A program made the position numbers and the translations under genes. A stretch of DNA of 64,000 nt from Myxococcota bacterium (GTDB lineage: Bacteria > Myxococcota > XYA12-FULL-58-9 > JABJBS01): the NCBI GenBank assembly GCA_036339465.1, contig JAYZAY010000026.1, positions 19,789 to 83,788 on the forward strand. The letters run 5' to 3'. Below, in pieces: positions 1 to 28,571 of this stretch. Within the stretch, counting starts at the first letter, position 1, and each line of letters opens with the position of its first letter. The notes beneath the pieces were generated by a model, which saw only the letters and a program-made list of their open reading frames with translations, was not told where the DNA came from and ran no database searches.

Positions 1-3000
1 AGATCTGCCTCTCTCCAAAACACACACCAAAATTTTTCGTCACCATGGGCGCCACTAAATTGTGGTCGGGAGCACCATCACAATCATTATCGAGGCCATC
101 GCAGGATTGTTCATTCAATTCATAAGTCGCAAAAAGAACCGCGTAGGGAGGTTCCATCCAAGTTATCTGACCAAACGAATTCTCTATACACACCTTCCTT
201 GCCCCCGAACAGACCCCCTCCTGAAGACTTGCCCGTGGTGCGAGCAGATGCTCGGATTCATCCACTCGACCATCACAATCGTTATCGAGGCCGTCACAAG
301 TCACTTCCTGAGGCTCATAGTTGGCAATATCTTCGAAATCTGGCGCTATCCAGATCTTCTGAATACTGTCACACTCCATTTTTTGAGTTTTACACACGCC
401 CACCGTATTGGCGTCGGGGCGTTTATCAAGGGCGATATTGTCGGTGGTGCCATCACAGTCATTGTCTAAACCGTCACAACTTATTTCTTCCTCTTCATAA
501 AGAAAGTTGCCATTGACATCCTTGATCAACTTATAATTCGGATTCACCCAAATGGGATTTCCCTCCTCATCCACACCACAGACTTTCCTATGGCCCGCAC
601 AAACCCCCACGTTTAAGTCATTCATGGGGCTGTGATTGACGAGGTCACTTGCCTCATCTGCACTACCATCGCAATCATTGTCCAAGCCATCACAGAGGGT
701 TTCAGAATCCTCATAATCGGGCAGCGTATAATAATTAGGTTCGATCCAATTCTTGACCCCATCCCCCGAATCACCGCATCGCTTCTTCGACATGACAGAG
801 CACACCCCCACAGTTTTTTCTGCCTTGGGTGCAGAAAGGTCGATACCTTCATCGGTGCTCCCATCACAATCATTGTCGAGACCGTCGCATATGGTCTCCA
901 CCGACTCGTAAATCATTTCGCCGTCTTCATCGCGAATAAAATTGTAGTCTGGGTCGATCCAACCCGTTCCTTGACCATTGCCAAGGGCCCCACAGAGTTT
1001 CTTTTGCCCCACACAAATACCATCCTGGAAGGACGCATTGGGACGAAAATCTTCCAAATCCTCATCCACTTGTCCGTCGCAGTCGTTGTCCAAACCGTCG
1101 CATAGGGTCTCCACGGGCTCGTAGAGCTCAATGCTCAAAAGATTGGGTTCTTGCCACCGATTGTCCCCTGCACAATATTTTCTCGAATTTTGGCACACAC
1201 CTTTTTGATTTTGGGCCAGAGGTTTGTCCAAATCTTCATCCACAACATCATCACAGTCGTTGTCGAGACCATCACAAGTTGTTTCATCGGCTTCATAAGC
1301 AACCACAGTCGCCAAATAGTCGGGATCCATCCAACCACTAACACCTCGGCAAACTTGGCGCTGCCCCAAACACTGCCCTGATTGTTTGGTCGCAAATGGA
1401 GTATCCACATAACCTGCCTCTCCGGAAATCGGGCAATCGATCGTGGATACGGAATCGCCGGGGGGCCGGTCGTGAAAAGTCCCACTTCCTGCTAAACATT
1501 CATCGACCAAACCATCGCAATCATTATCCACGCCATCGCAGAGGGTCTCGCGTATCTCATAGTTGTCAATTTCAAGGTAGTTGGGATCTTGCCACTGATT
1601 AATGCCCGCACAAATCTTGGTCGCCCTCGCCGCACATACACCCAAAGTCTTACTTCCAGCCGGAGCGTCTTCAGTGGATGCAAGGTTGTCGGCTGTGCCA
1701 TCACAATCGTTGTCGAGGCCATCACATCGGGTTTCTGTGATTTCGAATACATTATCAGAAACCGTAATGAAATAATCCGGTTCTACCCAAGTATAGTTTC
1801 CGACCTCATCCAATCCACAGTATTGACGCTGTCCTTCACAAACCCCGTCTTGCTTGGAAGACAATGGTCGATAGGGAGCAAGTTTAGGCGGATCATCCAC
1901 CGTTCCATTACAATCATTGTCCAAGCCATCACAAAGCGTCTCGGTTTCCTGGTAAACCAAATCGAACATATTGTAGACAGCTGGCGCATAGACAGGCTCA
2001 TTCCATTGCCAACCACTGCCCCCATCACTCCCACATTCTTTCCGAACTCCCTTACACACCCCCAACTGTTGGGTGGATAAAGGCAAGTCTGTGATATTGT
2101 CCACCACACCATCACAGTCATTGTCTAAACCATCGCAGGAAACTTCAGCGAATTCATAATCGGCGATGGTAGCCAGGGTGGGCTCTTGATAAACACCATT
2201 GCGACACACCTTTTTCGAATTCAAACAAGTACCTTTTTGGTTCGTGCCTAAAACCAGTAAATACTCATCGATGTTGTCAATCACCCCATCACAATCATTG
2301 TCGACACCATCACAAGAAATCTCCAACACCTCAAAGCTCACGGTGTGGTTCAAATAGGTGGGTTCGCGCCACATGGTGATACCGTCTCGGGTCTCACAAA
2401 CCTTCTTAGCACCATTACAGACCCCCTTCGAATTGTCTGCTTCAGGTCCAATCAGATCTTCATCCGTATCTCCATCACAATCATTGTCCAAGCCATCACA
2501 CAAAGACTCATTGGGCTCATAATTAGGAAAGGCCGTGTAGTCGGGCTCCAACCAATTTCCGTTTTCACAAACCTGCTTCGCAGTGATACACACACCAGCA
2601 GCTCTGTCTCCTGCCGCCGCAGTCACCGCCACACTGGATTCATCAATCTCGCCGTCGCAGTCATTATCCTCACCATCGCATGTACGTTCTGACACTTCAT
2701 AACCGGAAATATTATCCACCGGGAGATCTTCCCATGTTCCGGCATTACAACTCTGCAATTGATTCTTGCACACCCCACTTCTCAAACCAGGCTCGGGTTT
2801 TTGCTGTACCAACCCTTCGTCATACACCCCATCGCAATCATCATCTACCCCATCGCATTTGTCGCAGTCTGCGACCCCATCACATGACTTCGGTTCCAAT
2901 TCAGGCAGCGCGTTTTTATGACTGTCACACAAAAGAGTCCGCTGATCCTCCCCACAAATAACGCGGCCGCCCCCACACAACCCAACCCCACACGACATAC

Positions 3001-6000
3001 CCTTTGTTAGGCCACTGTCACCATTGGAGTCTGTAAAAGTCCCCACACAGTCTTCGGTCAGGCAAGTCTCGGTGCCAAATTCCGCCGCGGAGATATAGGG
3101 ATCATCGACCACCCCATTACAATCGTTATCGAGCTCATCACAAAGGGTTTCCGTTTCTTCATAATCGGGGAGCACTGTATAATCCGGCTCTTTCCAGGTA
3201 CCCGATACATTGTCACAATACTTCCTCTGGTCATGACAGACCCCATATTGCATCGCCGCCAACGGACGTTGCTCACTGTTTAAGGCCAGGTTATCCACAA
3301 TACCGTCACAATCATTGTCGAGGCCGTCACAGGAAATTTCTATTTCTTCATAACCTGCCACCAAAGCGACGTAATTTGGTGTAATCCAAGTCTTAGAAAC
3401 GGAATCACATACTCTCTTTTGCCCCGCACAAACCCCTACCCCCAAGGCATCGGGCCTAGAATCCAAAGCAATCTCGTCGATATCCCCATCACAATCGTTG
3501 TCCAAGCCATCACAGGAAACTTCCACCACTTCGTAGTTTGCCAAAGAAGCGAGATAATCAGGCTCAATCCAAGTCTTGGTGCCGTCGTCGTCTAGGCCAC
3601 ATACCCGCTTGGCACCTGCACAAACACCCACATTTTTAATGGCGTTGGGATAGAGCAGCTTGTCCTGACTCAAATTATCAATCAGCCCATCACAGTTGTT
3701 GTCCAAACCGTCACAGAGAGTCTCTTGGGGCTCATAGGTTTGAATGGCCAGGGTATAGTCTGGCTCATTCCATTTCTTAAGTGCCGAATCGCATTCCATT
3801 TTCTGCCCAGAACAGACCCCACTGGCCGCAGCATTGGGGCGATGCTCTACGAGAATATTGTCGATCATACCATCGCAGTCATTGTCCAAGCCATCACAGC
3901 TTGTCTCAGGCATTTCGTAGCCGTCGACGGTGACGTTATAGGTTGGGTCAATCCAAGTCTTAATACCATCGCTGTCGGTACCGCAGATCTTTTTGGCACT
4001 GGCGCATACCCCCGTGGCTTTGGTGGCCATAGGGTGCTGCTCTACGCCCTGTGACAAGTTATCAATCACCCCATCACAGTTATTGTCGAGACCGTCACAC
4101 AGGGTTTCAGACGCCTGATAACTCGCAATGGCCAAGGCGTAATCAGGCTCTTCCCAAGCCTTCTCTTCCGAATTACACACCATTTTCTGCCCCCCACACA
4201 CACCACTGGTCGCAGCATCGGGACGGCTCTCACTCAAGATATTATCCACCACCCCATCACAATCATTGTCCAAACCATCACAACTGGATTCAGACACTTC
4301 GTAATCCACCACCGTCACCCCGTAATCAGGCTCCACCCAGGTCTTGACACCATCCAAGTTGGTGCCACAAACCTTCTTAACGTCGGCGCAAACCCCAACC
4401 ACCATTTTCGCCGAAGGATAGAGCGTTGGAGCTTGCTGTAAATTGTCCACCACCCCATCACAATCGTTATCCAAACCATCGCAAAGGGTTTCGGATGCCT
4501 GATAGGTTGCGATGGCCAAAGCATAGTTAGGCTCTTCCCAACGGGTCTCTTGGGTGTTGCAGTCCATTTTCTGCCCCACACACACACCACTGGTGACCGC
4601 ATCCGGGCGGTTGACACTAACAATATTGTCCACCACGCCATCGCAATCATTGTCTAAGCCGTCACAACTCATTTCCGAAGCTTCGAAATTAACCACCGTC
4701 ACGCTGTAATCGGGTTCCGACCAAACCTTCTCGCCATTTTCGTTGGCAGCACAAACTTTCTTGGCATCCATGCAGACACCAATTTTTTTGGTGGCCGATG
4801 GATAGAGAGAAGCAACCTGCGACAAATTATCCACCACCCCATCACAATCATTGTCCAAACCGTCACAAAGGGTTTCTGCGGCTTCATAGGTAGAAACTGC
4901 CGCGGCGTAATCGGGTTCTTCCCAAGCCTTTAAGCCACTATTGCATGACATTTTGCGACCAGCACATACGCCGCTGGTAATGGTCTCAGGGCGATTCTCA
5001 TTGATAATATTATCCACCACCCCATCACAGTCGTTGTCCAAACCATCGCAACTGGTCTCAGTGGCTTCGTAGTTGATAACTGTAAGTGCATAGTCAGGCT
5101 CGATCCAGGTCTTCAAACCATCCTCGCCGAAGCCACATACCTTTTTCAAACCGCTACAAACCCCAGAAGCTCGTATGGCCTGGGGATGTTCATCCGTGGG
5201 CTGTGATAGGTTGTCAACCAATCCATCACAATTGTTATCGAGACCATCACATTTGGTTTCCGCTGACTGGTAGCTCGCAATCGTCAAGGAATAATCCGGC
5301 TCTACCCAAGCTTTTTGCTCACTGTCGCAAACCATCTTCTGGCCCACACACACACCAGTGCTCACTGCATCCGGACGATCGGCCTTTAGGATATTATCGA
5401 CTAAGCCATCACAATCATTGTCCAAACCATCACAGAGGGTTTCAGTCCCCTGGTAGGTGGTGATGGCCACCGCATAGTTGGGCTCTTCCCAGGTTTTTTG
5501 GTTCAGATTACAGACCATTTTTTGCCCCACACACACGCCACCCACAGCAACCACCGGGCGATTGGCCTTGATTATGTTATCGACTCCCCCATCACAGTCA
5601 TTATCCAAGCCATCACAAACAGTTTCTGAAGATTCGAAATCCAAAATGACATCAGCATAGTCGGGTTCAACCCAAGTCTTATTACCCTCACCGTCCTCGC
5701 CACAAACCTTTCTTACCTCAGAGCAGACCCCCGCATTCTTAATGGCCTGGGGATAAGAGTCGGCATCCTGAGACAAATTATCAACCAACCCATCACAGTT
5801 GTTATCGAGACCATCGCACAAGGTCTCATCCGTCTCGTAGCTGGGGATAGCCACGGCATAGTCTGGTTCTTCCCAAGTTTTTAGGGCACTGTTGCAGACC
5901 ATTTTCTGGCCCACACACACACCACCCACAGACACATCCGGGCGGTTGCCCCTAAGGATATTGTCTGCCGTTCCATCACAGTCATTGTCCAAACCATCGC

Positions 6001-9000
6001 AGATCGTCTCTATGGGTTCGTAATTTGGGACAGCATCTTCGTAGTTGGGATCGAGCCAGACCTTCAAACCAGTGTCGCCCGTGCCACATACTCTTTTAAC
6101 ACCAGCACAGACCCCAACTTTTTTTGTGGCCAGAGGATAGGTATCCACCGTCTGGGATAAATTATCCACCACGCCATCGCAGTTGTTGTCTAAACCGTCA
6201 CAAAGGGTTTCTGATGCCTCATAGGAACCAATACTCAAACTATAGTCGGGTTCTTCCCAAGATTTGCTATCACTATCGCAAACCATTCTCTGCCCCGCAC
6301 ACACGCCTCCAGCAGAAACCACCGGTCGATTGGCCTTAAGGATGGTATCAACTGCACCATCGCAGTCATTGTCCAAACCGTCACAGATGGTTTCGACCTC
6401 TTCGTAGCCAACAACCACATCACCATAAACAGGGTCAAGCCAAGCCTTCAAACCATTGTCGCCCGTGCCACAGATTTTCTTCACGTCGGCACAAACCCCG
6501 ACCCTTTTTGTGGCCTGGGGATACCCATCCACAGCCTGAGACAAATTGTCTACCACACCATCGCAGTTGTTGTCTAAACCGTCACAAAGGGTTTCTGATG
6601 CCTCATAGGAACCAATACTCAAACTATAGTCGGGTTCTTCCCAAGATTTGCTATCACTATCGCAAACCATTCTCTGCCCCACACACACGCCTCCGGCAGA
6701 CACCACCGGACGATTGTTATTCGCAATGTTGTCGACAATACCGTCGCAATCATTGTCCAAGCCATCACAGAGGGTTTCGACCTCTTCATAATTCAAGACA
6801 ACATCACCATAAACGGGGTCAAGCCAAGCCTTCAAACCATTGTCGTCGGTGCCACATAGCCTCTTAACACCCGCACAAACCCCTACCTTTTTCGTGGCCG
6901 CAGGATAAGCGTCCTGGTCCTGGGATAAATTATCCACCACCCCATCGCAGTTGTTATCGAGCCCGTCGCAAAGCGTTTCGGCCGCCTCATAGGTGCCAAT
7001 TGCCAAACTATAGTCGGGCTCCTCCCAAGCCTTGGTCACGCTATTGCAGGCCATCTTCTGACCGGTGCAAACACCACCGGCGGTCACATCGGGTCGATCG
7101 GCTTTAATAATATCATCCACGGTGCCGTCGCAATCATTGTCCAAACCATCACAGAGGGTTTCTTCCTCTTGGTAACCTACAACAACATCACCATAGACCG
7201 GATCAAGCCAGTCCTTCTCTCCACTCTCGTCGGTGCCACACACTCTCCTAACAGTGGCACAAACCCCAACCCTTTTTGTGGCCTGGGGATAAGCATCTCC
7301 AGCTTGGGACAAATTGTCCACCACCCCATCACAGTTGTTATCCAAACCATCACAGAGGGTTTCTGACTCTTCGTAAGTTGAAATCGACAAACTATAGTCA
7401 GGCTCTTCCCAGGCTTTACTAGCACTGTTGCAAACCATTCTCTGACCCACACAAACACCACCAGCGGTGACGAGGGGACGGTTTGCCTGAATCATGTTGT
7501 CGGCCACACCATCGCAGTCATTGTCTAAACCATCACAGATACTTTCGACCTCTTCGTAATTTGAGATGACATCCCCATAAACCGGATCAAGCCAGACCTT
7601 GGTTCCATTCTCGGCCTCCCCACAAATTCTCTTAACATCGGCACAAACTCCCACCTTTTTGGTGGCCGCAGGATAAGCCCCCGCTTCCTGGGATAAATTG
7701 TCCACCACCCCATCGCAGTTGTTGTCCAAGCCATCGCAGAGGGTTTCAGCCGCTTCATAGGAGGGAATGGCCAAGCTATAATCCGGCTCTTCCCAAGCTT
7801 TGTTCTCACTGTTGCAAACCATTTTCTGACCCACACACACCCCACCCCCAACAACATCCGGACGATTGGCCTTGATGATATTGTCAACGAGTCCATCGCA
7901 GTCATTGTCTAAACCATCACAAATGCTTTCGACCACTTCATAATTGACCACCGCATCACCATAGTCGGGATCAAGCCAGGCCTTCTTACCAGTCTCATCC
8001 GTCCCGCAAATTCTCTTAACGACCGAACAAACACCGACCTTTTTCGTGGCCGCGGGATAGGCATCAGCTGCCTGAGATAAGTTGTCCACGAGCCCATCAC
8101 AATTGTTGTCCAAGCCATCACAAAGGGTTTCTGATGCCTCATAGGTGAGAATCGCCAAACCATAGTCCGGTTCTTCCCATGCTTTTGCCACTGAATTGCA
8201 GACCATTTTCTGACCCACACAAACACCACCCGCGCTTACCTCCGGGCGATTCGCCTTGGCGATATTGTCAACCAGACCATCACAATTATTGTCTAAGCCG
8301 TCGCAGATTGTTTCTTCTATTTCGTAATTTAGGACAACATCGCCATAATCGGGGTCAACCCATGTTTTCGTACCGTTTTCATCCGTGCTGCACACTCTCT
8401 TAACATCAGCACAAACGCCCACCTTTTTCGTGCCTTGGGGATAATCATCGGTGGACTGGGATAAATTGTCCACCACTCCATCACAGTTGTTATCCAACCC
8501 GTCACAAAGAGTCTCAGAGGCCTCATAGGTGGCAATCGCCAAAGCGTAGTCAGGTTCTTCCCACGTTTTAAGGAGACTATTGCAAATCATTTTCTTGCCC
8601 ACACAAACACCACCACTGGCAACGGTGGGGCGGTTATCCTTCCCAATATCGTCCACAATACCATTGCAGTCATTATCCAAACCATCACAGATGGTTTCCG
8701 CTACTTCGTAATTAAAAACGGAATCACCATAGTCTGGGTCAATCCAGGTTTTTGAACCATGGACATCCGTGCCACAAACCTTCCTTACATCCGCACAAAC
8801 ACCCACCTTCTTTGTTGCCTGGGGATATGAGTCCGGAGTCTGAGACAAGTTGTCCACCACCCCGTCACAGTTGTTGTCCAAGCCGTCACAAAGAGTTTCC
8901 GAATCCTCATAGTCCCCAATCAAAACACTATAATCAGGTTCCACCCAGGCCGTTAGGCCGCTGTTGCAAACCATTTTCTGGCCCACACACACACCACTGC

Positions 9001-12000
9001 TCGATACCTGTGGGCGATTTTGTAAAGCGATATTGTCGACCACCCCATCGCAATCATTATCCAAACCATCACAGCTCAGATCCGATTCCTCATAGGTTGC
9101 CACTTCCAAAGCATAGTCCGGCTCAATCCAGGTTTTATCCCCATTCTCATTGGTTCCACATAACTTTCTTATATCGCCACAAACACCAGACGTCTTACTT
9201 GCCAGAGGATATTGATTCGGCAACTGCAATAGATTATCAACAACACCATCACAATCATTATCCATACCATCGCAATAGGTTTCCGACACTTCGTAATTAG
9301 CGACAGACTCAGAGTAATCCGGATCCACCCAGGTTTTAATACCATTCTCATCTGTAGCGCATATTTTTCTCACATTGGCACAGAGGCCAGAAATTTTTGT
9401 TGCGAGTGGGTAGAGTTCTTTGGACTGAGATAAATTATCGACCACACCATCACAATTATTGTCTAAGCCGTCACAGAGGGTTTCTGATGATTCATAAGAA
9501 GAAATAATCAAGCCATAGTTGGGTTCTTCCCAGGTTTTCAGAGCCGTATTACAAACCATTTTCTGGCCCACACACACTCCACTCGCCGCCACGTCGGGAC
9601 GATTCTGCGTCATAATATTGTCGATAACGCCGTCACAATCATTGTCCAAACCATCACAGCTTAATTCCGGTGACTCAAAATTAATCACTGTCACCCCGTA
9701 GTCCGGATTGACCCAAGTCTTTTTGCCATTCTCGTCGGTGCCGCAAACTTTCTTTGCATCCGCACAAACACCAACGTTTTTAGTAGCCGCTGGGTAGAGC
9801 TCCACCGCTTGAGAGAGATTGTCCACCACCCCATCACAGTCGTTATCCAAATCATCACAAAGGGTTTCTGAAACCTGGTAACTCGCAACAGATATGGAAT
9901 AGTCCGGTTCAATCCATTTGGTTTCCGCGCTATTACAAACCAATTTCTGCCCCGCACATACACCACTGTTGGCTGCAAGGGGACGATTGGCTGCAATAAT
10001 GTTATCGATCGCACCGTCGCAATCATTGTCCAAACCATCACAGCTCATCTCTGATTCCTCGAATTTTTCGACGAACGTCCCAAAGTCTGGATCAACCCAA
10101 GTTTTAACACCAGCATCGTTGGTACCACATACCTTCTTTGCCCCCACGCACACACCGACACTCTTGGTCGCCACAGGATAGAGGTCCACAACTTGGGATA
10201 AATTGTCGATCATTCCATCGCAATTGTTGTCCAAACCGTCACAAAGGGTTTCTGATGCTTCATAGGTAGCAATGGCCAAAGCATAGTTTGGTTCTTCCCA
10301 ACGGGTTTCGCCGCTATTACAAACCATTTTCTGGCCGGTACAAACCCCGCTATTTGCCGCATCGGGACGGTTCTGCGAAACGATATTGTCCACCACGCCA
10401 TCGCAATCATTGTCTAAACCATCACAACTCATCTCCGATGCTTCAAAGTTTGCGACATTCGTACCATAGTCCGGTTCAATCCAGGCCTTGTTACCACTGG
10501 CATTGGTCCCACAAGCTTTTTTCGTCCCCACACAAACACCGATATTTTTCGCTGCCGTTGGATATAGATCGGCGACTTGGGAAAGATTATCGATCATCCC
10601 ATCGCAATTGTTATCCAAACCATCACAAAGAGTTTCCGCCGCCTGATAGCTCACGACAGTCAATGCGTAGTTGGGTTCTTCCCAAACTTTGCCGGCCGTA
10701 TTACAAACCATTTTCTGGCCATTACAAACACCACTGGTGGCAGCGTCAGGCCGGTTGTCATGAACAATATTGTCCACCACCCCATCACAGTCGTTGTCCA
10801 AACCATCGCAACTTTTTTCCTCCAGCTCGAAATTTACAACCGTCACGCCATAGTCGGGGTCGATCCAAGCCTTGGTACCACTGTCTAAACCACAGATTTT
10901 TTTAACGCCCGCGCAAACACCACTGGACTTGGTTGCTGCTGGATAAAGGCCAACGTCTTGCGACAGATTATCGATAACCCCATCGCAGTTGTTATCTAGC
11001 CCATCGCACAGGGTCTCGGCGGCCTGATAGGAGGTGATTGCTAGGGCATAATTGGGTTCATCCCAACGGGATTCATCACTATTACACTCCATTTTCTGCC
11101 CCGCACATACCCCACTTGTAACCGCACTGGGACGATTCCCTGTGATGATATTGTCCACCACCCCATCACAATCATTGTCTAAATTATCACAGCTTTTTTC
11201 TGACGATTCGTAATTTGGGACGGTTACGCCATAATCAGGATCGATCCAATTTTTGTCGCCATGCTCGTCGGTGCCACAAATTTTTCGAACACCGGCACAA
11301 ACACCGATATTGCGCGTTGCCAAAGGATGTTGATCCACAGTTTGGGATAAATTGTCGACCACCCCATCGCAGTTGTTATCCAATCCATCACAGAGGGTCT
11401 CAGCGGCCTGATAGGTTGGTATCGCCAATGAATAATTGGGTTCGTCCCAACGAGAAGCGCCGCTATTGCATTCCATTTTTTGTCCCACACACACACCACT
11501 GGTGACAGCATCGGGACGGTTTCCAGTGATAATATTATCGACGACCCCATCACAATCGTTGTCCACATTGTCACAGCTCTTCTCCGACGCTTCATAAGTC
11601 TGAACCGTGACGCCATAGTCTGGGTCCACCCAATCCTTCTGACCCAATGCGTTGGTTCCACAAATTTTTCGAACATCAGCACAGACCCCAATATTTTTGG
11701 TGGCTAGGGGATGCTCGCTTGTGGGTTGGGATAAGTTATCCACCACCCCATCACAGTTATTGTCCAAACCATCACAGAGAGTTTCAGATGCCTGATAGGT
11801 GGCAATAGACAAAGGATAGTCCGGTTCCTCCCAAGCCTTAAGGGCTGTATTACAAATCATTTTCTGGCCCACACACACACCACTGGTCGCTGCGTCCGGG
11901 CGATTGACCTTGACAATATTATCTACGATACCATCACAATCATTATCCAACTCATCACAGCTAACCTCAGGCGATTCGTAATTTGGCACCGTAACCACAT

Positions 12001-18040: not shown

Positions 18041-18653
18041 GGGCGATATCCGCCTCCGTCCCCGAACCCCACGTTACCATGGACACCCTCGACTTAAAGG
18101 CTCGATTCGTTCGATAAAGTCGGGCCAAAACATGCCATATCCCCACCGCGTAATCGTAGGTCAGGTTCCGAGGCAACCTCGCCACCACCAAGATCCCATC
18201 CCGTCCCGGATTCTTGAGTTCGGTCGGTTCAATCTCCTTGACCAACCCCAGTAGTTTCCGCGAAAATTTCGCCCCCTTCGCATCCTCCAGCGCGATCTCA
18301 ACCGTCGCCCCTTCACCACCTGCACTGTCGGCATGTGCCAAAATCACACTTCCCTCAACCACATCCACAAGCACTCGGTGTCGCTGTTGTGAATCTCCCA
18401 TGTCCAAAACACCGCCGGCTACCGGTAAATTTTCAACACCTTTACCACTGGAATTTTCTTTCGCTTCTTGAAAACTCGCAAAAAGAGACGTCACCATAAA
18501 AAAGAGCAAAAGACTCAAAGCAACATCATCAAAACTGGTTGCCGCCTCTTCCTCTTGCAAGACATCATCATCTTCGTAAAGACTAAGATCTTCCTCAAGG
18601 TCCTCTTCCCAGGGATTTGTCTCTTCCTCTGTAGCTTCACCTTCACCCATCAA
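18033..18653 (-). CDS. ExbD/TolR family motor subunit
   Basis: Acidic N-terminus and a single TM TSFDDVALSLLLFFMVTSLF with the ExbD-type Asp; directly downstream of ExbB/ExbD homologues. Confidence 0.75.
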   Translation of the reverse strand: MMGEGEATEEETNPWEEDLEEDLSLYEDDDVLQEEEAATSFDDVALSLLLFFMVTSLFASFQEAKENSSGKGVENLPVAGGVLDMGDSQQRHRVLVDVVEGSVILAHADSAGGEGATVEIALEDAKGAKFSRKLLGLVKEIEPTELKNPGRDGILVVARLPRNLTYDYAVGIWHVLARLYRTNRAFKSRVSMVTWGSGTEADIAHE

Positions 18654-19363: not shown

Positions 19364-20449
19364 TCACGCCCCGCCTTGACGCATGTGTGCCGACACCTCA
19401 CTGGAAATCAGTTGAAGTTGGGTCGTGAAAAAATTGATCCGCTGGGAAATCCCCGATTTTAATGCCAATCCCACGGATTTGATAATCAAGGCCATAAAAG
19501 TGGTTACGAGGGCCACAAAAATACCCTGGGACATCATATTGATCATCTCCGGCGAGGCATTCTCCCCCAATAAACTAAAAGCCACAATCATCCCCTGAAC
19601 CGTTCCTGCAAAACCCACCGCCGGCGCAACATTCAAGGCCGTATTGATCAGATGCATCTTTTGAAACTCTTCTTCTCGAATATCCTTGGTCTGAGCAATG
19701 AAGTACCGATCAAGGGCCGTCTCCGAAGCAAGAACAGATCCACCAATTTGCTTTACCACTTCGGCCAAGTGGTTATCCAACCCCAAAAGAACACCCATGT
19801 CTTCATCACGAAATTTGGCATCCTCCCAAAGCGTCGCCCGTTCTTTCCCCTGGGCTTTAAAGGCTAAAAGAAGCTTGTTCTCAACATATTCGACATGGTC
19901 ATCATGCATGTAGAAATTCTCTTGTCGAACTGTCCAAAGGATGTAAATCCCCGACAACGCCATTGCGAAAAGGATATAGAGTCCCGACATCATAATATAT
20001 TCTAAGACGTCTCCAAGAATGGTTTGGCTAGACATGGGGTCGCCACTATCGCCGGCGGCCTCTTCCGGAACCGTTTCAGGCACCGCCGGCTCTTCTTTCG
20101 CCGTTTTTTCTCCGTCCTCCTCCGCAGCAAAAGCAACGCTACTAAAAATCCAATCCATTTGAAGAAATTGGTTCTGAGCAGTTTTCTTGGAAACATGTCC
20201 CCGGGCATCGGCTTCATCAATCTCCCCTTGCTTGGGATTGGCAATCATGGTTGCGAGCTGTTTGGCCTTCAGAGGATTCACAAAAGATCCCGTCACGAAT
20301 TTTCCCAAAACCGATGTCGCCATGAGTAGAGCCACGGTTAGAATGGCAACCCAATACCATTGAATCAGGCCTTGTTGCTTGAGAACATCACGTCGACGGG
20401 ATTCATAAACTCCCGCCTGCTTCTTTTTGCTATCATCTCCCATTATCAA
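19364..20449 (-). CDS. MotA/TolQ/ExbB proton channel family protein
   Basis: C-terminal motifs APAVGFAGTVQGMIVAF and GIFVALVTTFMALII match the ExbB/TolQ TM2-TM3 pattern; extended N-terminus. Confidence 0.85.
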   Translation of the reverse strand: MIMGDDSKKKQAGVYESRRRDVLKQQGLIQWYWVAILTVALLMATSVLGKFVTGSFVNPLKAKQLATMIANPKQGEIDEADARGHVSKKTAQNQFLQMDWIFSSVAFAAEEDGEKTAKEEPAVPETVPEEAAGDSGDPMSSQTILGDVLEYIMMSGLYILFAMALSGIYILWTVRQENFYMHDDHVEYVENKLLLAFKAQGKERATLWEDAKFRDEDMGVLLGLDNHLAEVVKQIGGSVLASETALDRYFIAQTKDIREEEFQKMHLINTALNVAPAVGFAGTVQGMIVAFSLLGENASPEMINMMSQGIFVALVTTFMALIIKSVGLALKSGISQRINFFTTQLQLISSEVSAHMRQGGA

Positions 20450-20476: not shown

Positions 20477-21625
20477 TTACTCACAGTCTTTTTCCCCACA
20501 CAAGCCCGCCCGATTGTACCAAGCGACATGGGGTTTCATCTTTCCTGACTTAAAATCGCCAACATAGTAATATTCAAAAAGGAAATCGTTCTTGTCTGCA
20601 TCCACCGTGAAGTATTGGTAATAGCCCTTCGTCCCTTTCATGAACATCACATACCGGCCATCTGGCAAATGAATTTTTCGCGGATCTGGACAGATAGGAG
20701 AGTCATCTCTTCCAAGCTTCTCCCAATCGTAGAGATACACCCGAGAGATAACTCGGCGGAGGTCCTCGGTGGCAATCTTCGCAAAATAGGAAGCAGTTGA
20801 ATCCTTAACCGTCACTGGCTCGATAACCAAATTATCCAAACCCAATATAGGGTGGACGTAGCTCGTCTTTCCCTGCGGCATCGCATATATATCGTCGTCT
20901 TGCGCCACGGCTCCTTTTTCCGCATCAACAGCCCTAAGTTTGAGTTCCGCTGGTAATAATTCCGGGGTTGGAACAATATCAAAATGCACCGACCGGATGC
21001 CTCGAGCCCATCTAGATTTTTCTTTTTCAACCACCAAATGAAATGGATACCGTTCTTCCAAAACCCCACTGATATTACTACCAAACGAATCTTCAAAATT
21101 CGGAGGCCGCGTCAAATAAATCGGCTCTTCCGATGCACTCGGAAAAACCTTTTCGGCACAACGACGATATGGCTCAATTTCAGCTGCAATACCTTGGGCC
21201 GCGCGCCCCAAACCAAAATAGAGATATGCCAGGGCCACTTCTCGAGGAAAACAACCCGAACTCCCAGAATTGTTGCGAGGCGAACAGGTAATCGGCGTTT
21301 GCTCCAACTCTGAACTCTGCTTCTGTAGAGGAATCACCCGGGATTCCAGAATATTGCGCATATTGTCTACCAATCGGGTCCGAGTTCCAAGATCTGCGGT
21401 AATTCTCAGCACTTCATAGTATCGCTGCATTTCCGCCACAGCCAATTGCACAGCAACGATGGAGCTGAAATCTTGCCCCAACTCTGGTTTTTCTTCTGCC
21501 CCTTTTTCTCCCTCCTCTCGCACATCCTTTTCCTGGGCAAGAGCCGCCGATGGTTTGAAAACGAGTGCCACCGAAAAACCTACCACAAGGGTCACCACCA
21601 AGTTTTTGCGTAGAATAGATCTCAT
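20477..21625 (-). CDS. Hypothetical exported protein
   Basis: 382-aa ORF with signal peptide ending SAALA-QE; overlaps the upstream gene by 4 bp. Confidence 0.8.
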   Translation of the reverse strand: MRSILRKNLVVTLVVGFSVALVFKPSAALAQEKDVREEGEKGAEEKPELGQDFSSIVAVQLAVAEMQRYYEVLRITADLGTRTRLVDNMRNILESRVIPLQKQSSELEQTPITCSPRNNSGSSGCFPREVALAYLYFGLGRAAQGIAAEIEPYRRCAEKVFPSASEEPIYLTRPPNFEDSFGSNISGVLEERYPFHLVVEKEKSRWARGIRSVHFDIVPTPELLPAELKLRAVDAEKGAVAQDDDIYAMPQGKTSYVHPILGLDNLVIEPVTVKDSTASYFAKIATEDLRRVISRVYLYDWEKLGRDDSPICPDPRKIHLPDGRYVMFMKGTKGYYQYFTVDADKNDFLFEYYYVGDFKSGKMKPHVAWYNRAGLCGEKDCE

Positions 21626-23238
21626 TTTACCTGTCCTGCATCAGCGTTATCGGTTGAAGCCAATTGGCCACCACATAATTGGGGTTTAACACGGCCATCG
21701 AGTGACCTAGCATGAGTGACACTCTCTGTGGTTCCCATCGTCATCAAGAAGTCGATGTATTCCTGAACCATCACGCAATCCGAAGCACTGAAGCGCTGTG
21801 CCGAACGAACTCTCTCCCGCAGGTACAAGCCACTCGCAGTTGCCCGCTCTGTAACCCGAAGTGACTGCCGATTTAGGTGAAAAAGCCCCGAAACATATTC
21901 CTCCGGCCAACCCTCAATTAAATCCACATACAACACTTTCATGCGTTTCATGATTAAACGGTATCCCTCCTCGAGTAATCTAAGCACCACACTGCGATGT
22001 TTTTTTGAGGCGCTGAGATGATGAACCATTTTCAATAATAATCGTTCTTTCCCATTCCAATCAAAGGGCGTTATTAGTTTTTTTACCAACAACATGGTAT
22101 CTGAGTCACCCCGTTGTCCCTCTCGACAAACGAGTCGCGTAATGGCCTGACCGTAAACCAACAAGGCCTCTTCGTAGATATCGATAAATTGCGATTTTCG
22201 GTTCAAAACATATTCAGCATCATTCAGTGACTCTTTTAAAAAATCGAGTTCTTCCGAACTACCAGGAGCCACCAATCCCCGAGTTCTCGCCCTTGACACC
22301 AAAAGCCTCTCCTTGAGATGGTCGGCCACCGACTCATTCTTACCCAAAAGTTCAAGTGCCGAAGAATAATACCTAACCGCTTTTTCCAACTCAAAATGAT
22401 ACTCGTCTGAATCTGCAGCACCGCTCTCAAGACCACAAATATCATACTTCGCTGTTTCAGAATCAGGTTTCCTACTTGAATCTTCCGTCACCTCATCATT
22501 GACCTTAGACACACCAAGGGTTTCTTTACCTTTCAGTCGAGACCGGTATCTAATCACCAACTCGTTGGCACGGTCCCAAAAAACACCCAACCGCAAGTTC
22601 CCCTCATCTGCGTAACTTATTTCGAGTCTCTCCTTGGCACGTCTCACAATACGACCCATTTCTAGAACATTCGCATCATCTCCATCTTCCTGCTTGAATT
22701 TGTCGCCGAGCTTTTTATAGAGCATTATCATCATCGGCGAAGTCATCCATAAAATCCGATCTAGATTGATTCGAATCAGGGACACGAGTTCCTCCACCGT
22801 CGGCGAAACTCCTTCTGGGTCTTCTATGGGGTCCATCACGAGGAGGTCTTCAGCCCCCGTAATCAGGGTATCTGCGCGAACCAGGGCCATTAAAAAAGCT
22901 GGTTTATCTGCTTGAAATCCGGCCTTCACCAATTCCGAGAGAACCACCTGATTACAACAACGTACATTCTCAATATCCTTCGGTAAAAGAGGGGGAGTCT
23001 CAAGACAAGAGCACCGTTTCAGCTCCTCTGGAGTTTCTTTGTTTGGCTCATCACTCAAAGAGGTTGTAGCAGGTTGCGGCGCTTCTAAGTCCGTAACCTC
23101 TTCTTCTTGGATTTTCGAATTTTCTAATTCAGAAACCTCAACGGGCTGTGAGGGTGGCAATACCAACACGATCGCGACCATTGATGTAAGCGCATAATTC
23201 ATCATTTCTCTAGATATTCCTCGTAGAGTTCGTCGCAA
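21622..23238 (-). CDS. Hypothetical exported alpha-helical (TPR-like) protein
   Basis: 538-aa ORF with N-terminal hydrophobic segment and helical stretches such as LEKAVRYYSSALELL. Confidence 0.7.
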   Translation of the reverse strand: MRRTLRGISREMMNYALTSMVAIVLVLPPSQPVEVSELENSKIQEEEVTDLEAPQPATTSLSDEPNKETPEELKRCSCLETPPLLPKDIENVRCCNQVVLSELVKAGFQADKPAFLMALVRADTLITGAEDLLVMDPIEDPEGVSPTVEELVSLIRINLDRILWMTSPMMIMLYKKLGDKFKQEDGDDANVLEMGRIVRRAKERLEISYADEGNLRLGVFWDRANELVIRYRSRLKGKETLGVSKVNDEVTEDSSRKPDSETAKYDICGLESGAADSDEYHFELEKAVRYYSSALELLGKNESVADHLKERLLVSRARTRGLVAPGSSEELDFLKESLNDAEYVLNRKSQFIDIYEEALLVYGQAITRLVCREGQRGDSDTMLLVKKLITPFDWNGKERLLLKMVHHLSASKKHRSVVLRLLEEGYRLIMKRMKVLYVDLIEGWPEEYVSGLFHLNRQSLRVTERATASGLYLRERVRSAQRFSASDCVMVQEYIDFLMTMGTTESVTHARSLDGRVKPQLCGGQLASTDNADAGQVK

Positions 23239-25613
23239 TGTTTGCGCTCCTCATTACACGAATATTCGTCTTGGTCTTTACATTGTAACTCCTCAGTCCA
23301 TGGTCTACTCGCCCATGGGATAGAGTTCACCCGAAGAATAGCACTGCGGCTCTGTTCAAAAAGAGAATTGCTCGAGTGTTTTTTCAGAGCTTTAAATACG
23401 TCCAACAACACCGCACAATGAGAACGCATCAATTCCCCAGTCCCACCCACCACCTCGGTAGAAGGCAGATGTTTACCAACATCATAAGCGACCACCCGGC
23501 AAGAGTCATCTCCATCCTCTTTCATCTCCTCGCGACGCGGTCTCCAAATAGGAATTGGTTTCTTCGCTTGTTCCAGAAAAGAGTTCACCGCTGCAGTCAG
23601 AAATTTATCGACTTGTTCCCCCGCGTATAGACCATCCATTCGTGCGGCCCGGGAAAAAGAGAGGTAGAGTTCCATCCTTTCCAGAAAGTCAAAGGGTATA
23701 CGAATCAAGTTTACCATAGACAAAATTCTCTCTTTATCGCCAGACTCTAGTCTCTTTCGGATCAAGTTGGCATAAAGCAATCCATAGCGAGCTTGCGATC
23801 TGGCAATTAGACGCTGGACCTCCAATCCCTGCACCCCCGTAGGGTCCTCCACACACTCCCCATCACTGCGGTCTTTCAAAAACTCAGGCTTGGTCTGATT
23901 TAGTTCCTTGATGATGGAACGCAATTGGCCAAACGCTGTTTCTGCAACCGACTCATATCGTTGCGGATCCCCCGGCGACTTCTCCACCTCAACTGAAACC
24001 TCACCATCCACGTCGGTCTCAAAAACAAATCCAAGCGAGTATTTCACCTCGAACTCAGCTAAATTCAACCGTATTTCGCTTTTTCGGATATTGTTCTTGT
24101 CCAGTAAATCTTGCAACTGCTCTCGTCTCAAACTAGAATCCTCAGGTTCATTACCTTGACTGGAGCGCGGAGACCTATAGTCGGTAACCCCCAACATTTG
24201 AATCGCCTTCTCTAAATGCTTCCGGACACCCTCGTAAGCAATTTCGGTGATTGGCTTGTTTTCGGCGGCCATGAGTTGATTCTCCCAGCGCTCCCGCATG
24301 GATAATCCCATTAAGCGATGCGCGCCTGAAGCAAGATTCGAATCATCATAGAAAGTGGCAACCAGTGCATTTCTGGCCTGCTCGCCTGCGAGGCGACACA
24401 ATCGAATGCGTTCGTCCATGGGGGCTTCAGAGTCACACCCCTTCGCCATCATTTGCCGCACTTCTTCCGACACTCCCTGACGCTCTTGGCCCCCAAAGGA
24501 CTCCCGGGGCTTTATACCCAGTAGTGCGAGATGATCCGCAACAATTCGAACTAAGGGAATCAACTCATCCAAAGGCTTCACAAATCTAGAATTTCTCTCC
24601 GTAGAATATCTCGCCGCAGTCACAATCATCATCTGCAAGAGCTTTCCGTGCCACACCAAATATCGAAGTGGTTCTTCATACCTCTGAAGGTCTTTCACCG
24701 TGGCTTTGACCCAATTCCGTGATTGAGTTAAGGCACCCCCTTTGCTGAATGCCGCCTCAACATCGCCGCATTTCCGGCGTAAGGCTGCCTGTTGGGTTTG
24801 AAACTTAATGACTTCACCCTGTAGTTTCCTAGACATCCCCCCCTGCGCTCGCATAACCGCATTCAATTGAGCGCCCCAGGCCATCAATGCTTTTTTTTCG
24901 TCCAAACAAACCTGAACCTTGGGACCCAATTTCTTGGATTCCCGTTCAAAGTCGCGGTAGTCGACCCGAACCCCTTTCCAAGTGTCGCGAACTTGCTTCT
25001 TCATTTGCCCTAAGTAGTGGGTCGGATAGGTTGTGCCCTCTATATTCAGAGGGTCCTTTAGCTTAGCTAAGACAGTTCGACGATTGTCACCAAACTTTCC
25101 GGACAGTGCTTCGAACATGTCCCTGCAGCCCTCTATTTCCAGAGCCCAAGCACGTGAACTGGGCGTTTTTTGCCAACCATAAGCTACTTTTGCTCGCCCC
25201 AAGAGATACCGCGCTTCGCCTCCACGACGGCTCCTAACTGCTCTTTTTAAAAGCGACAAAGACTTCATCAGATCAGCCTGTGCTCCAGTCTTCTCAAAAC
25301 GCCACAAATAGAGTTTACCTAAGATATATTCGATATTCCTCTGGGCATCGACCAATTGAAGCTTTCCACATCCCAGACGGTAGGGGTCATACCTCAAGAG
25401 TTCGTCGTAAAGCCGTTGAGCTGGCTCAAAGAATTCATCCAAAGGTGCTCCGGAATTCATATCCAGGTCAAAATCAAGATCCTCTGTGCGTTCAAACACA
25501 GCGCATTTTTCTCCGGCCCAAACTGGTGTATTATCAACAAAAAACACCGCAAGCATCAGTGTCATCACCCAGGCTCTGTGGGAGCTTCGGTCTCTTGGCA
25601 CTTGCGATCTCAT
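23202..25613 (-). CDS. Hypothetical exported alpha-helical (TPR-like) protein
   Basis: 803-aa ORF with signal-like N-terminus (PVWA-G) and TPR-like YILGKLY...ARYLLGRAK segments. Confidence 0.75.
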   Translation of the reverse strand: MRSQVPRDRSSHRAWVMTLMLAVFFVDNTPVWAGEKCAVFERTEDLDFDLDMNSGAPLDEFFEPAQRLYDELLRYDPYRLGCGKLQLVDAQRNIEYILGKLYLWRFEKTGAQADLMKSLSLLKRAVRSRRGGEARYLLGRAKVAYGWQKTPSSRAWALEIEGCRDMFEALSGKFGDNRRTVLAKLKDPLNIEGTTYPTHYLGQMKKQVRDTWKGVRVDYRDFERESKKLGPKVQVCLDEKKALMAWGAQLNAVMRAQGGMSRKLQGEVIKFQTQQAALRRKCGDVEAAFSKGGALTQSRNWVKATVKDLQRYEEPLRYLVWHGKLLQMMIVTAARYSTERNSRFVKPLDELIPLVRIVADHLALLGIKPRESFGGQERQGVSEEVRQMMAKGCDSEAPMDERIRLCRLAGEQARNALVATFYDDSNLASGAHRLMGLSMRERWENQLMAAENKPITEIAYEGVRKHLEKAIQMLGVTDYRSPRSSQGNEPEDSSLRREQLQDLLDKNNIRKSEIRLNLAEFEVKYSLGFVFETDVDGEVSVEVEKSPGDPQRYESVAETAFGQLRSIIKELNQTKPEFLKDRSDGECVEDPTGVQGLEVQRLIARSQARYGLLYANLIRKRLESGDKERILSMVNLIRIPFDFLERMELYLSFSRAARMDGLYAGEQVDKFLTAAVNSFLEQAKKPIPIWRPRREEMKEDGDDSCRVVAYDVGKHLPSTEVVGGTGELMRSHCAVLLDVFKALKKHSSNSLFEQSRSAILRVNSIPWASRPWTEELQCKDQDEYSCNEERKHCDELYEEYLEK

Positions 25614-25614: not shown

Positions 25615-26202
25615 TTAGAACCCCGTTGCCCTAACCCGCGTCTTCACCACTGGCCCTGAGGGAGTCGGGGGAGGTGGCGCAAATTTGGCTTTCCCCTGAA
25701 CACCAATTGGCTTTGCCTGGGAGGTAAGTAATCGACTTAGGTCCAACATGGGTGGTTTCTTTTTCTTCTTAAATTCCTCTTCCCCCTCTCCTTGTTCTTC
25801 GGTGGTGTCCTCTGGTTCTTCATCGGGTTCATCGGGTTCATCGGTGTCTGTCATGTCATCTAAGCAAGTGTCGCAAACACAAATTAAAACATCTTCGGTT
25901 GAAACCGAGAGCTGGATACGATTCATTTGGGGTGGGCCGGGAATACCCATAAATAAAAGACAGGCCAAAATAGAAACAGCCATACTGGCGTAGGTCCCAT
26001 ACTTGGTCAAAAATGTTTTGATGGGACTTTGGCGTCTCCGGATCCAGCGATAATCAAAGGACTTTGCACGGCGGTCCTTGCCCGAACGACGGTCGGTACC
26101 GCTCCGCCGTTCAGTTTCTACTGCGACCTCTTCTTTGCGCCGCTCTTGTTCACTTCTTCGATCAGTCTCCTCTTTATTCCTCGTTAATTTCTTATCAGTC
26201 AT
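25615..26202 (-). CDS. Single-pass membrane protein with ERR/DRR repeats and acidic/Pro-rich periplasmic region (TonB-like architecture)
   Basis: N-terminal DRR..ERR..ERRSGTDRRSGKDRR, one TM, then CVCDTC, DEPDEPDEEPED and PPPPTP. Confidence 0.65.
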   Translation of the reverse strand: MTDKKLTRNKEETDRRSEQERRKEEVAVETERRSGTDRRSGKDRRAKSFDYRWIRRRQSPIKTFLTKYGTYASMAVSILACLLFMGIPGPPQMNRIQLSVSTEDVLICVCDTCLDDMTDTDEPDEPDEEPEDTTEEQGEGEEEFKKKKKPPMLDLSRLLTSQAKPIGVQGKAKFAPPPPTPSGPVVKTRVRATGF

Positions 26203-26204
26203 CG

Positions 26205-27500
26205 TTAGGACTCCTGAGAAATTTTATGAGTGCGGTAAAGGCAACTGCCACCGAATTTTTCTAGAATATCGGTAGGCAATCGATATTCGGCCATCGCAAA
26301 TCCAGAAACCAATCGATAGGCCCCCACGTATCCTTCAACCAAGGGAACCATCGTAATATCACAATCTGCACCACGTCTTATAAAAGGAACCGCGACCAAG
26401 CCGCGCCCCACATAGAGCCCAATGTAATCAGCGGTTGTCTTTTCCCTTAAATAGGGATTGTCTCGAATTAAATTGGGTTGCCCTCCAGAACGCATATTAC
26501 GTTCATCATAACGCATTCGAACCACCAAATCGCCAAAACGAAGATCCCGCGAAGAGACGATCCGTCTTAATGCGTTGTTTTCAAGCCAAGTCACCAACTC
26601 GTGCATTCGAATCGTTGCCTTGGGTCCGAAATCAGCTGCGGCACTGGGATAGAGCTTTCGAAAAAGGTTCGCGGAGTTGTCGTGTTCACTATACTGATAC
26701 GCCAACAACAACCGGGTAGCGCTTTTGTCCAACAACCCAGGCAAACCGTCTCTGTAAATCTTCGGTAAATCAGCCGGAGAAACGTCGTCTGACATTTTCC
26801 CGAAAGAACCCTCCGCCCCACCTTCCAGGGCAATGTCGGCCTTATTTTTTGGCGCTTTTTTCACTTCCACAGAAGCCAGAGGTTCAACGGGAGCAGGTGG
26901 AACCTCTTCTAATAGCGCAGCAGAGGAAATTGATTCGGAGAGTCGGACCTGAGGAAATTGCGTGACCAAGCTTGCCAGTTGAAGAGATTCAAAATCAACA
27001 CCACAAGCCTGAATTTTCCAGCAACTAACCAAGTCACCGCGAAAGGCCCGATTATTGGAATTTTTGCATATGGGCATGTGTAATGCGTTGGACGTCGATG
27101 TCTGCGTCACTTCGAGAATACACGGTTGCATCGATTGAGTAATTTCAACCAACACAGAATAACTTACCGCCTGACATTCGTGATCCGCTGGCAAAAAGAG
27201 ATGCTGGTGCTTGTTTGTTGCATCATTGGAAATCTGTAAATCCCCTGCGAGGCTGAGTACCCGACGAATCTCTACGGTTTGCCCTGCATCACCCTCATCC
27301 CCTGGTAATTGGGCATGGATCTTGGTCGTTTCAAGAGCATCGAGAAATCGACCAAACTCTTCTTTCTGCAAAGCAAAACAAAAAGAAGGTTCAAACCCCC
27401 TAAGATTCAACTCAGAACATCCAGAGGGGAGTGTCAAAAGGAAAAGCAAAGTCATAGACAGGGCCCACGACAGTCCTTGGCCTGTGAATAACGACATCAC
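26205..27500 (-). CDS. Lipoprotein with C-terminal degenerate NlpC/P60-like domain
   Basis: Lipobox LPSG-C. C-terminal HDNSANLFRKLY...SRDLRFGDLVV...DYIGLYVGRG...YVGAYRL follows the NlpC/P60 motif order. Confidence 0.6.
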   Translation of the reverse strand: MMSLFTGQGLSWALSMTLLFLLTLPSGCSELNLRGFEPSFCFALQKEEFGRFLDALETTKIHAQLPGDEGDAGQTVEIRRVLSLAGDLQISNDATNKHQHLFLPADHECQAVSYSVLVEITQSMQPCILEVTQTSTSNALHMPICKNSNNRAFRGDLVSCWKIQACGVDFESLQLASLVTQFPQVRLSESISSAALLEEVPPAPVEPLASVEVKKAPKNKADIALEGGAEGSFGKMSDDVSPADLPKIYRDGLPGLLDKSATRLLLAYQYSEHDNSANLFRKLYPSAAADFGPKATIRMHELVTWLENNALRRIVSSRDLRFGDLVVRMRYDERNMRSGGQPNLIRDNPYLREKTTADYIGLYVGRGLVAVPFIRRGADCDITMVPLVEGYVGAYRLVSGFAMAEYRLPTDILEKFGGSCLYRTHKISQES

Positions 27501-27512
27501 GTGCTCACTTCA

Positions 27513-28571
27513 TCAAAATAGATAGTCAAGAATCAAAACTGTTCCCAATCCAATCATACCGAGAATCAGAGACCACGCAAATAACCCCAGATCCAAGAGA
27601 CGATGCACCATTCCCAGGCGGTGGTTTTGAATGAACCGGTCGTAATCAAGTCGTATCACCTGAGCCAAAAAGCTATGAATCGTGTCCGATAATATAGGGG
27701 CTTGTTCCGAAAATTCTAAGCCGTATTTGTAGGCGCGCCCCCCGCTCAATCCCTCCCGTTGGGTAATCACGGATTCGATTCGAAAGGTCTGTGAAATTGA
27801 CTTCAAACCCATGACTAATTTTATCTTTTGCCCAAGTTCAAACACCTCATTGTGGTGAATAGAGATACCTTCTGCGGATAGATTGTACACATAAACGTCG
27901 TGAATGGAGCTGGAATCTTCGATATAACATTGTACGATCTCGTGAATGTTAAAGCCACTTAGACAGGTACCTCTCCGTAATTTCTCGTTTTTGACGCAGC
28001 TTTTTGTAACTGCGAGTTCCGAACGCATCAACGCACTGATGGCTTTGGCCTGCTCGATGGAAATACCCGCAAAGAAAAGCCCCAGTTCCTGGAGTTGCCC
28101 TCCTAAGATCGATGAAATGGGTCCACCACAGTGGGAGCATGTCGGTGCGTGGCGATCCACGGTTTGTCGTATGAGCTTTCGATACCCGGTATCGGCGAGA
28201 ACCAAGGTGGTACAATCCTCCCCCGTCCAATACCCCGTGGCTGCGCAATCGGAGCACGCCAAAAATTCAAGCTTCGCACCCTCAACCAACGTCCCATCCG
28301 TGGTATTTCGGCGAATTACAAAGGCCGAGAGTCGCAAGGTTTCACGTCCCTCCTGGCAAAGCTCCGCACAAACAACATCCCCCACAGCGTAGGGAATAGA
28401 GGAAAAAACTCGGCAGCCACCCATGGACAAATCGCCTAAAAACTCCTCAAAACCACCGTTCTTATGGCAAAGACGAATGGGCTGGTTCAGTTCTACGCGG
28501 TGATAGCGACGATGCTCCCCCCCATCGACCCAATCGGGCGCCATCAAAGTCGAACCGTGTCCCCCCATCAT
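27513..28571 (-). CDS. Membrane-anchored double-PilZ domain protein with inserted Zn-ribbon
   Basis: PilZ1 has RRYHR and DLSMGG; CSDC...CSHC is inserted; PilZ2 has NLSAEG; C-terminal TM helix. Confidence 0.8.
   Translation of the reverse strand: MMGGHGSTLMAPDWVDGGEHRRYHRVELNQPIRLCHKNGGFEEFLGDLSMGGCRVFSSIPYAVGDVVCAELCQEGRETLRLSAFVIRRNTTDGTLVEGAKLEFLACSDCAATGYWTGEDCTTLVLADTGYRKLIRQTVDRHAPTCSHCGGPISSILGGQLQELGLFFAGISIEQAKAISALMRSELAVTKSCVKNEKLRRGTCLSGFNIHEIVQCYIEDSSSIHDVYVYNLSAEGISIHHNEVFELGQKIKLVMGLKSISQTFRIESVITQREGLSGGRAYKYGLEFSEQAPILSDTIHSFLAQVIRLDYDRFIQNHRLGMVHRLLDLGLFAWSLILGMIGLGTVLILDYLF

Follow-up and report, generated by a model that had tools for sequence, protein, structure and literature searches.

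The stretch of DNA analysed here (the window; 64,000 nucleotides) covers positions 19789-83788 of contig C26 (JAYZAY010000026.1) of a Myxococcota genome (G000, the source genome; 4.17 Mb, 102 contigs, 92.8% complete), and it holds most of an operon in which genes for an ExbB/ExbD/ExbD motor stand together with a gene for a giant cysteine-repeat protein, a putative adhesin. Its MYXO-CTERM proteins, a myxosortase-like gene and a GltG cluster also point to the Myxococcota. The operon consists of 12 co-oriented minus-strand genes (g1 to g12; C26:16675-48359, 31.7 kb) and extends past the window; coordinates below are those of the window and refer to the minus strand unless marked otherwise. An earlier note on this DNA had listed 11 minus-strand open reading frames (ORFs) with overlaps or gaps under 40 bp, and all of them were recovered in place. 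Measured from the first possible start codon, the successive gaps from g1 to g11 are 12, 2, 1, -37, -4, 27, 12, 5, -8 and 39 nt, and the junction sequence places a probable GTG start of g12 1 nt past the stop codon of the giant. Promoters and terminators were scanned over window positions 16000-30000, where promoter-like sites were as frequent as chance would give (13 against 13.0) and none of the minus-strand terminator-like sites fell between genes. The earlier note had regarded a terminator or promoter ahead of the giant (16672) as a feature that would part it from the upstream genes; no intergenic terminator was found, and the 8/12 sigma70-like match just upstream of the giant is not a rare one, 34 of 245 comparable gene pairs having one too. 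The composition is native.

ExbB together with ExbD subunits forms a proton channel. In the operon, g7 (19364..20449; PF01618, E 1e-13) encodes a long ExbB/TolQ-family subunit with four transmembrane (TM) helices, including an extra N-terminal one with a periplasmic segment. The paralogous g8 (18659..19351; PF02472, E 0.004) and g9 (18033..18653; PF02472, E 0.01), the latter also recognised by its TM motif, encode ExbD/TolR-like subunits, of which the first carries a Cys-rich C-terminal extension. Pfam agrees with the earlier listing of two PilZ domains, ExbB, two ExbDs and PF11617 repeats, both ExbD matches being weak and below cut-off. The channel threonines of ExbB are invariant and the TM aspartate is kept in both ExbDs; the motor is probably active, and its identification in the earlier note holds. 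The non-self relatives of ExbB form only three clusters (65, 59 and 37% identity), and on a 1,086-nt marine contig (L017) an ExbB orthologue is directly followed by an ExbD1 orthologue 46% identical to g8. In quick trees of 68 rows and of a chosen subset of 32 of them, ExbB and its three relatives form a clade of their own on a branch of 3.0-3.4, outside the well-supported AglR clade. The extra segment at the end of ExbD1 (18659-18850) holds four cysteines, all conserved in the L017 orthologue, and the strongest terminator-like hairpin of the region (19254-19283) lies inside the TM-coding part of the same gene. Three high-GC metagenome contigs (L018, L019, L036) represent a different cluster type, in which ExbB is accompanied by either one ExbD or two; on two of these contigs the set lies next to very large proteins.

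The giant, g11, occupies window positions 1..16672 (C26:17966-36460) and extends 1.8 kb beyond base 1 of the window. The earlier note had described a secreted repeat protein of more than 5,550 residues; the repeats are there, while the full length is 6,164 residues and the end lies outside the window. Its layout comprises a signal peptide, a dead zincin-like head, cysteine repeats, an internal MYXO-CTERM-like segment, a TraB-type barrel and one TSP3-like motif. The repeats number 79-80 by PF11617, with a core alternating between 61 and 67 residues; the PF11617 motif occurs in 21 of 22 class genomes and has been noted as unspecific (PMC6189053). Matches to the head (residues about 96-420; 15413..16387) came from 78 of 400 other phylum genomes sampled; the 20 genomes in this sample that share its family and order had none. 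Among 29 head homologues, one per genome from the best matches, all keep [HQ]ExxH and a later histidine (16 have strict HExxH); the giant has lost all four of these residues. Since the PDB and Pfam links of the head to known zinc metallopeptidases are weak, the label of a dead zincin-like head is fair but not firm.

Near-identical DNA was found in marine sequencing runs, and four runs from four studies were used for variant comparison. In the giant, 16 of 25 variants are synonymous against 21.5% expected (p 6e-6); eight of the others change a residue, one is a stop in a single contig of depth 3.8, and no indels were listed. The giant is complete and under purifying selection.

The strongest clue to the function of the operon lies beyond the window, in the MYXO-CTERM-like segment, the barrel and the twelfth gene. 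A MYXO-CTERM segment receives a lipid and is cleaved by myxosortase, and a TraB-type barrel is an outer-membrane component by which an adhesin is held. The segment of the giant (C26:18983-19066, from residue 5798) scores 16.7 bits with TIGR03901 against a cut-off of 20, and its invariant Gly-Cys cysteine, TM helix and arginine cluster are visible. The source genome also has a myxosortase-like gene (NF040593, E 4e-28, below cut-off). The barrel region with the single TSP3-like motif (C26:17966-18889) matches NF033763 positions 33-262 (E 4e-6), far below the full-length TraB cut-off; its alignment with class relatives covers it in full and reveals no plug domain, and its profile matches FapF (E 0.0018). 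No C-terminal OmpA domain follows in the giant, the ORF stopping 21 residues past the start of the first TSP3-like motif. We scanned 29 of the 44 non-self barrel matches: all extend 98-418 residues beyond the barrel, and OmpA is present in 23, the other six having no match at E 1e-8 (one of them is cut by a contig end). The order of adhesin, MYXO-CTERM and barrel recurs in four class genomes. Repeats, MYXO-CTERM-like segment and barrel agree with the earlier view of a giant Cys-repeat protein at the cell surface, and they support a surface adhesin-type protein.

MXAN_5598 of the literature has the same layout, namely adhesin, internal MYXO-CTERM, barrel and OmpA (PMC11980579), and together with TraA/TraB (PMC11980579, PMC12045341) it shares with the giant the signal peptide, the Cys-rich stalk, the MYXO-CTERM-like segment, the TraB-type barrel and the TSP3-like motif. 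The giant differs from these proteins in its roughly 80 PF11617 repeats, its 6,164 residues, the missing OmpA domain and the motor operon, and from TraA in having a dead zincin head in place of the variable domain; no NCBIfam match to the TraA variable recognition domain was found in its first 1,000 residues.

Two paralogous lipoproteins (phmmer E 4e-8) bracket the operon at both ends: g2 (26205..27500), in which an N-terminal beta domain precedes a catalytically dead NlpC/P60 domain (residues about 244-400), and g12 (C26:16675-17964), which lies outside the window, 1.8-3.1 kb before base 1. They belong to a family of 12 members with the same extra N-terminal beta domain, in which the NlpC/P60 fold was matched and the catalytic residues are gone (Cys kept in 0 of 11, His in 1 of 12, with the position of the Cys helix taken from the alignment). 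The pseudo-NlpC/P60 lipoprotein of the earlier note is borne out by this fold match and by the loss of the catalytic Cys and His. RipD (Rv1566c) offers a precedent for a non-catalytic NlpC/P60 protein, going by the title of PDB entry 4jxb, and shares the fold without an intact catalytic site; the lipoproteins of the operon differ in forming a separate family with the added beta domain and two paralogues, and their wall binding is putative. Because the same rare lipoprotein family stands on both sides of the giant, the motor half appears tied to the adhesin half.

The remaining genes are less telling. The first, g1 (27513..28571; 352 residues; PF07238, E 4e-19 over two stretches), has the order PilZ, two CxxC motifs (at 106 and 145), PilZ and a C-terminal TM helix (330-348), and is likely a membrane-bound regulator; among 21 other class genomes it has no orthologue. 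Its first PilZ domain shows RxxxR at 21 and DxSxxG at 47 and its second NxSxxG at 230 with no RxxxR nearby, so that RxxxR and D/NxSxxG, which we take to be the canonical motifs for cyclic di-GMP (c-di-GMP), are seen together in the first domain only. The single-TM protein g3 (25615..26202; 195 residues, TM 69-87), a candidate energy transducer, has a cytoplasmic part with five [DE]RR repeats and a periplasmic acidic, Lys- and Pro-rich stretch with a short tail, the last 75 residues being of low complexity. The [DE]RR repeats share the operon with the PilZ protein. The earlier note had called g3 TonB-like; this did not hold, as it has no TonB_C domain and no GltG or GltJ match, and it is without the His that we presume to mark the TM motif of TonB and TolA. 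No match to TonB_C (PF03544) or NF033760/61/68 was found anywhere on C26, while contig C25 scores 3e-51.

Downstream of g3, the exported helical protein g4 (23202..25613; 803 residues) has leads to TPR clusters (Atlas feature scores of 0.86-0.88, short of the threshold of 0.9), no Pfam, NCBIfam or PHROG match and one marginal 78-residue match in 200 genomes. The probably exported g5 (21622..23238; 538 residues) has no match in Pfam, NCBIfam or PHROGs, no homologue search in sequence databases having been made for it, and the exported orphan g6 (20477..21625; 382 residues) has a single non-self relative, 88% identical, and no usable Atlas match. Last in this group, g10 (16712..18040; 442 residues) is a predicted lipoprotein by its lipobox-like N-terminus, an orphan with no Pfam, PDB or credible genome match. 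Nothing in these searches supports its description as CBM-like except a single BLAST segment, aligned out of register, that leads to a CBM11 domain.

The source genome has 13 PF01618 matches, and known motor systems are accounted for elsewhere in it: an Agl-Glt-type cluster on C25, a Tol-Pal locus on C85 with TolQ over cut-off and TolA- and TolB-like neighbours, and Ton sets on C62 and C59, besides five PF00593 receptors. The C25 cluster (L146:1-11722) is one operon of TPR proteins, a GltF-sized ORF, AglR/Q/S-like proteins and a GltG-like protein (GltG 3e-51). Because uptake, Tol-Pal and gliding are covered by these separate loci, the operon studied here is an extra system and, with no TonB_C domain in its candidate transducer, probably none of Agl-Glt, Tol-Pal or Ton uptake. 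Family searches agree with the earlier note that no TonB-dependent receptor, TolB or Pal lies in the operon; TonB_C and TolA were likewise not found there, and the operon is not the cell's Ton uptake or Tol-Pal system. The note had also likened one TolQ-like and two TolR-like subunits to AglR/Q/S. The count and the channel Asp bear this out, but they are not specific to Agl, since the Ton-Oar system of M. xanthus (ExbB1, ExbD1, ExbD2, TonB1 and Oar; PMC6434023) has the same count. One ExbB with two ExbDs is found as well at four other loci (L003, L004, L006 and L008).

We tentatively propose, as our best reading, one that is possible and short of probable, that the operon encodes a motor belonging to the Tol/Exb/Agl class, which would anchor the adhesin and pull on it while the dead NlpC/P60 lipoproteins serve as a peptidoglycan clamp. 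Sec would export the giant, and a cut at its internal MYXO-CTERM segment would separate the barrel from a stalk held by a lipid anchor; this stalk would comprise about 80 repeats joined by disulfide bonds and bear a non-catalytic head that binds a target. The wall anchor would come in trans from the two lipoproteins, which we propose because the barrel lacks an OmpA domain and g12 is encoded exactly at OmpA's place. The motor, by way of g3 and the helical proteins that are exported (g4-g6), would pull on or reposition the barrel-adhesin unit, and the outcome would be an energised, releasable attachment to particles or cells, switched by the membrane-bound PilZ protein with c-di-GMP. The earlier note had likewise inferred a trans-envelope machine that exports, anchors or moves the giant under c-di-GMP control; its operon, motor and adhesin stand, its TonB-like component does not, and c-di-GMP control has the motifs of one PilZ domain in its favour. 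In favour of the proposal, TraB is described as still adhering when OmpA is absent (PMC12045341).

Several observations weigh against this proposal. In Tol, Exb and Agl systems the TonB_C protein carries the force (PMC5349195, PMC3169522), and this usual force-transmitting part was not found in the operon. The MYXO-CTERM score stays under its cut-off, and the junction at this segment is bridged by none of the 32 contig pieces listed of 858. OmpA-less barrels occur elsewhere, in six of the 29 relatives scanned; g4-g6 and g10 were matched to no fold; control by c-di-GMP through g1 would follow from motifs in a single PilZ domain; and a weak promoter may lie before the giant. The system has so far been seen in a single uncultured marine species and on a handful of short contigs. 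A profile search (E 1e-12) found orthologous ExbB in 0 of 400 genomes of the phylum, the lipoprotein profile likewise gave 0 of 400, no ExbB orthologue was found in 40 relatives (best E 1.5e-9, generic), and two pattern scans of GTDB contigs found the operon in no second genome. We also examined 35 stretches (574 kb) surrounding 11 head-domain, 7 PF11617 and 6 barrel proteins, several of which stop at contig ends; they held no ExbB and no lipoprotein-family match, and 4 of 4 positive controls were found. Synteny of motor and giant gene in other genomes, which the earlier note had proposed to look for, could not be shown in the 400 genomes and the 35 stretches. Seen from the motor side, co-occurrence is neither confirmed nor contradicted, since short contigs are the sole source of motor orthologues. 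What ties motor to adhesin so far, in one genome, is how the operon is built and the presence of one rare lipoprotein family on either side of the giant.

Type II secretion bears on how the giant leaves the cell. [quoted passage not shown] The T2SS-specific ORFs of six relatives, assigned by gene order and sequence, have no blastp match in the source genome, only PilB, PilC and PilQ cross-matching. A dedicated export line is conceivable, in which motor, helical periplasmic proteins and FapF-related barrel move the 6,000-residue stalk over the outer membrane in place of the T2SS. The FapF match of the barrel fits this, FapF being, as we take it, an amyloid secretion pore. A set of ExbB, ExbD1, ExbD2 and TonB supports PopC secretion in M. 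xanthus (PMC6434023); this Ton-Oar system shares ExbB, two ExbDs and a possible protein-export role with the operon, but it has a TonB_C protein and a TonB-dependent transporter that the operon lacks, whose barrel is of the TraB/FapF type. We consider such an export line unlikely. A true loss of the T2SS is no more likely than a gap in the assembly, because the assembly is 92.8% complete and the T2SS is one 13-kb operon, and three other class genomes are also without over-cut-off GspD. About five other MYXO-CTERM-like proteins, recognised by C-terminal motif, persist together with the myxosortase-like gene (TIGR03901 matches number 3 in the source genome and 4-15 in its family), the barrel alignment lacks a plug domain, and a folded disulfide-rich stalk would hardly pass through a small barrel. 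PilQ itself (L209:6449-11611, on C67) is unusually long at 1,720 residues.

That motor and adhesin are neighbours without a shared task is improbable in our estimation. The motor half would then be a Ton-like energiser peculiar to the lineage and would serve other clients, such as the genome's five TonB-dependent receptors, with the adhesin appended downstream under its own promoter. The related adhesins of the 35 stretches do stand without motors, Ton systems commonly combine ExbB with two ExbDs, and the promoter-like site lies with an AT-rich 39-nt gap before the giant. Against this, the operon has no TonB_C protein while other Ton loci exist, sites like the promoter-like one are not rare, and the lipoprotein family occurs on both sides of the giant.

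A wider claim, which we also regard as improbable, would combine export with tension: a new class of proton-driven envelope machine without TonB_C or T2SS, in which the divergent motor, three orphan periplasmic proteins and the dead NlpC/P60 wall clamps export and then actively tension the adhesin via a co-translated TraB/FapF-type barrel under c-di-GMP.

Descent from gliding machinery is quite doubtful. The operon would then be a duplicate, much diverged, of the Agl-Glt core (AglRQS with GltG-like and GltC/D/E-like TPR proteins); it would serve motility on surfaces or a transport resembling that of spore coats, and the giant would be its surface adhesin. In broad outline its parts are those of the core complex (PMC3169522): the Agl-Glt and Agl-Nfs cores share with it one TolQ-like and two TolR-like subunits with the channel Asp kept, and the one cluster likewise includes exported helical proteins and a single-TM protein rich in Pro and acidic residues (PMC3169522, PMC5349195). 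The TPR-like leads of g4 and a tree test that does not reject grouping ExbB with AglR (approximately unbiased p 0.415) point the same way. However, with the query left out, support for the AglR clade is 99-100, ExbB falls outside that clade in the quick trees, the TM motifs of the ExbDs are unlike the AglQ/S type, and the operon is without the TonB_C proteins GltG and GltJ and without detectable GltA-K. No gene matches a Glt family, none matches the genome's own Glt and AglQ/S proteins by phmmer, GltC/D/E gave neither profile nor phmmer matches, and the C25 cluster is itself the genome's Agl-Glt locus. Finally, TraAB-like kin recognition with outer-membrane exchange, pulled by its own motor instead of by cell movement, is very improbable, for although the giant resembles a TraA-TraB fusion and the exchange model needs force on wall-anchored TraAB, the first 1,000 residues hold no TraA family match, OmpA, needed for the exchange, is missing (PMC12045341), and so long a stalk would presumably hold membranes apart.

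Each module of the operon is of a known kind, and in the literature searched we found no description of the combination of motor and adhesin-barrel; the supplementary locus lists of PMC3169522 lay outside this search and may hold a similar locus. The main text of a preprint on giant genes (10.1101/2023.11.21.568195) does not mention ExbB, ExbD, TonB or MopE. A motor operon with channel residues yet no TonB_C would reveal another way of coupling proton flow to the outer membrane. The operon joins an Agl-type motor with an adhesin-barrel unit of the TraAB type, which are otherwise studied apart, and its new non-catalytic NlpC/P60 lipoprotein family is offered as a detachable OmpA substitute. Should the T2SS truly be lost, the locus would become a candidate for an unknown export route of MYXO-CTERM proteins.

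In other Myxococcota, a domain homologous to the head stands at the N-terminus of proteins of 4,400-6,100 residues. Unlike the giant studied here, these keep the metal ligands, are mostly Cys-poor and often precede YD-repeat genes, and no ExbB neighbours them in the fetched stretches. Of the 10 giants fetched, at least 4, with 5,400-6,100 residues and an intact zincin-like head, are encoded directly upstream of a YD-repeat (Rhs-like) gene of 3,400-4,000 residues (L081, L083, L087 and L089, in G156, G296, G207 and G230; probably also L096 in G191), possibly forming a conserved two-gene unit for contact or toxin delivery. PF11617-repeat proteins of 2,400-2,800 residues with terminal MYXO-CTERM-like tags (L136:4837-13907 in G021:C148 and L137:7310-17568 in G013:C110) adjoin a separate barrel-TSP3-OmpA gene, which overlaps as in traA-traB in G021 and is divergent in G013. 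At the end of the operon, a plus-strand gene (L001:3145-7635; C26:12144-16634) converges on g12 at a distance of 40 nt and encodes a 1,496-residue orphan with four C-terminal TM helices and no family match above cut-off. On the upstream side, window positions 29950-33779 carry ordinary genes, encoding a rhomboid, a MutS-domain protein and a YgjP-like peptidase.

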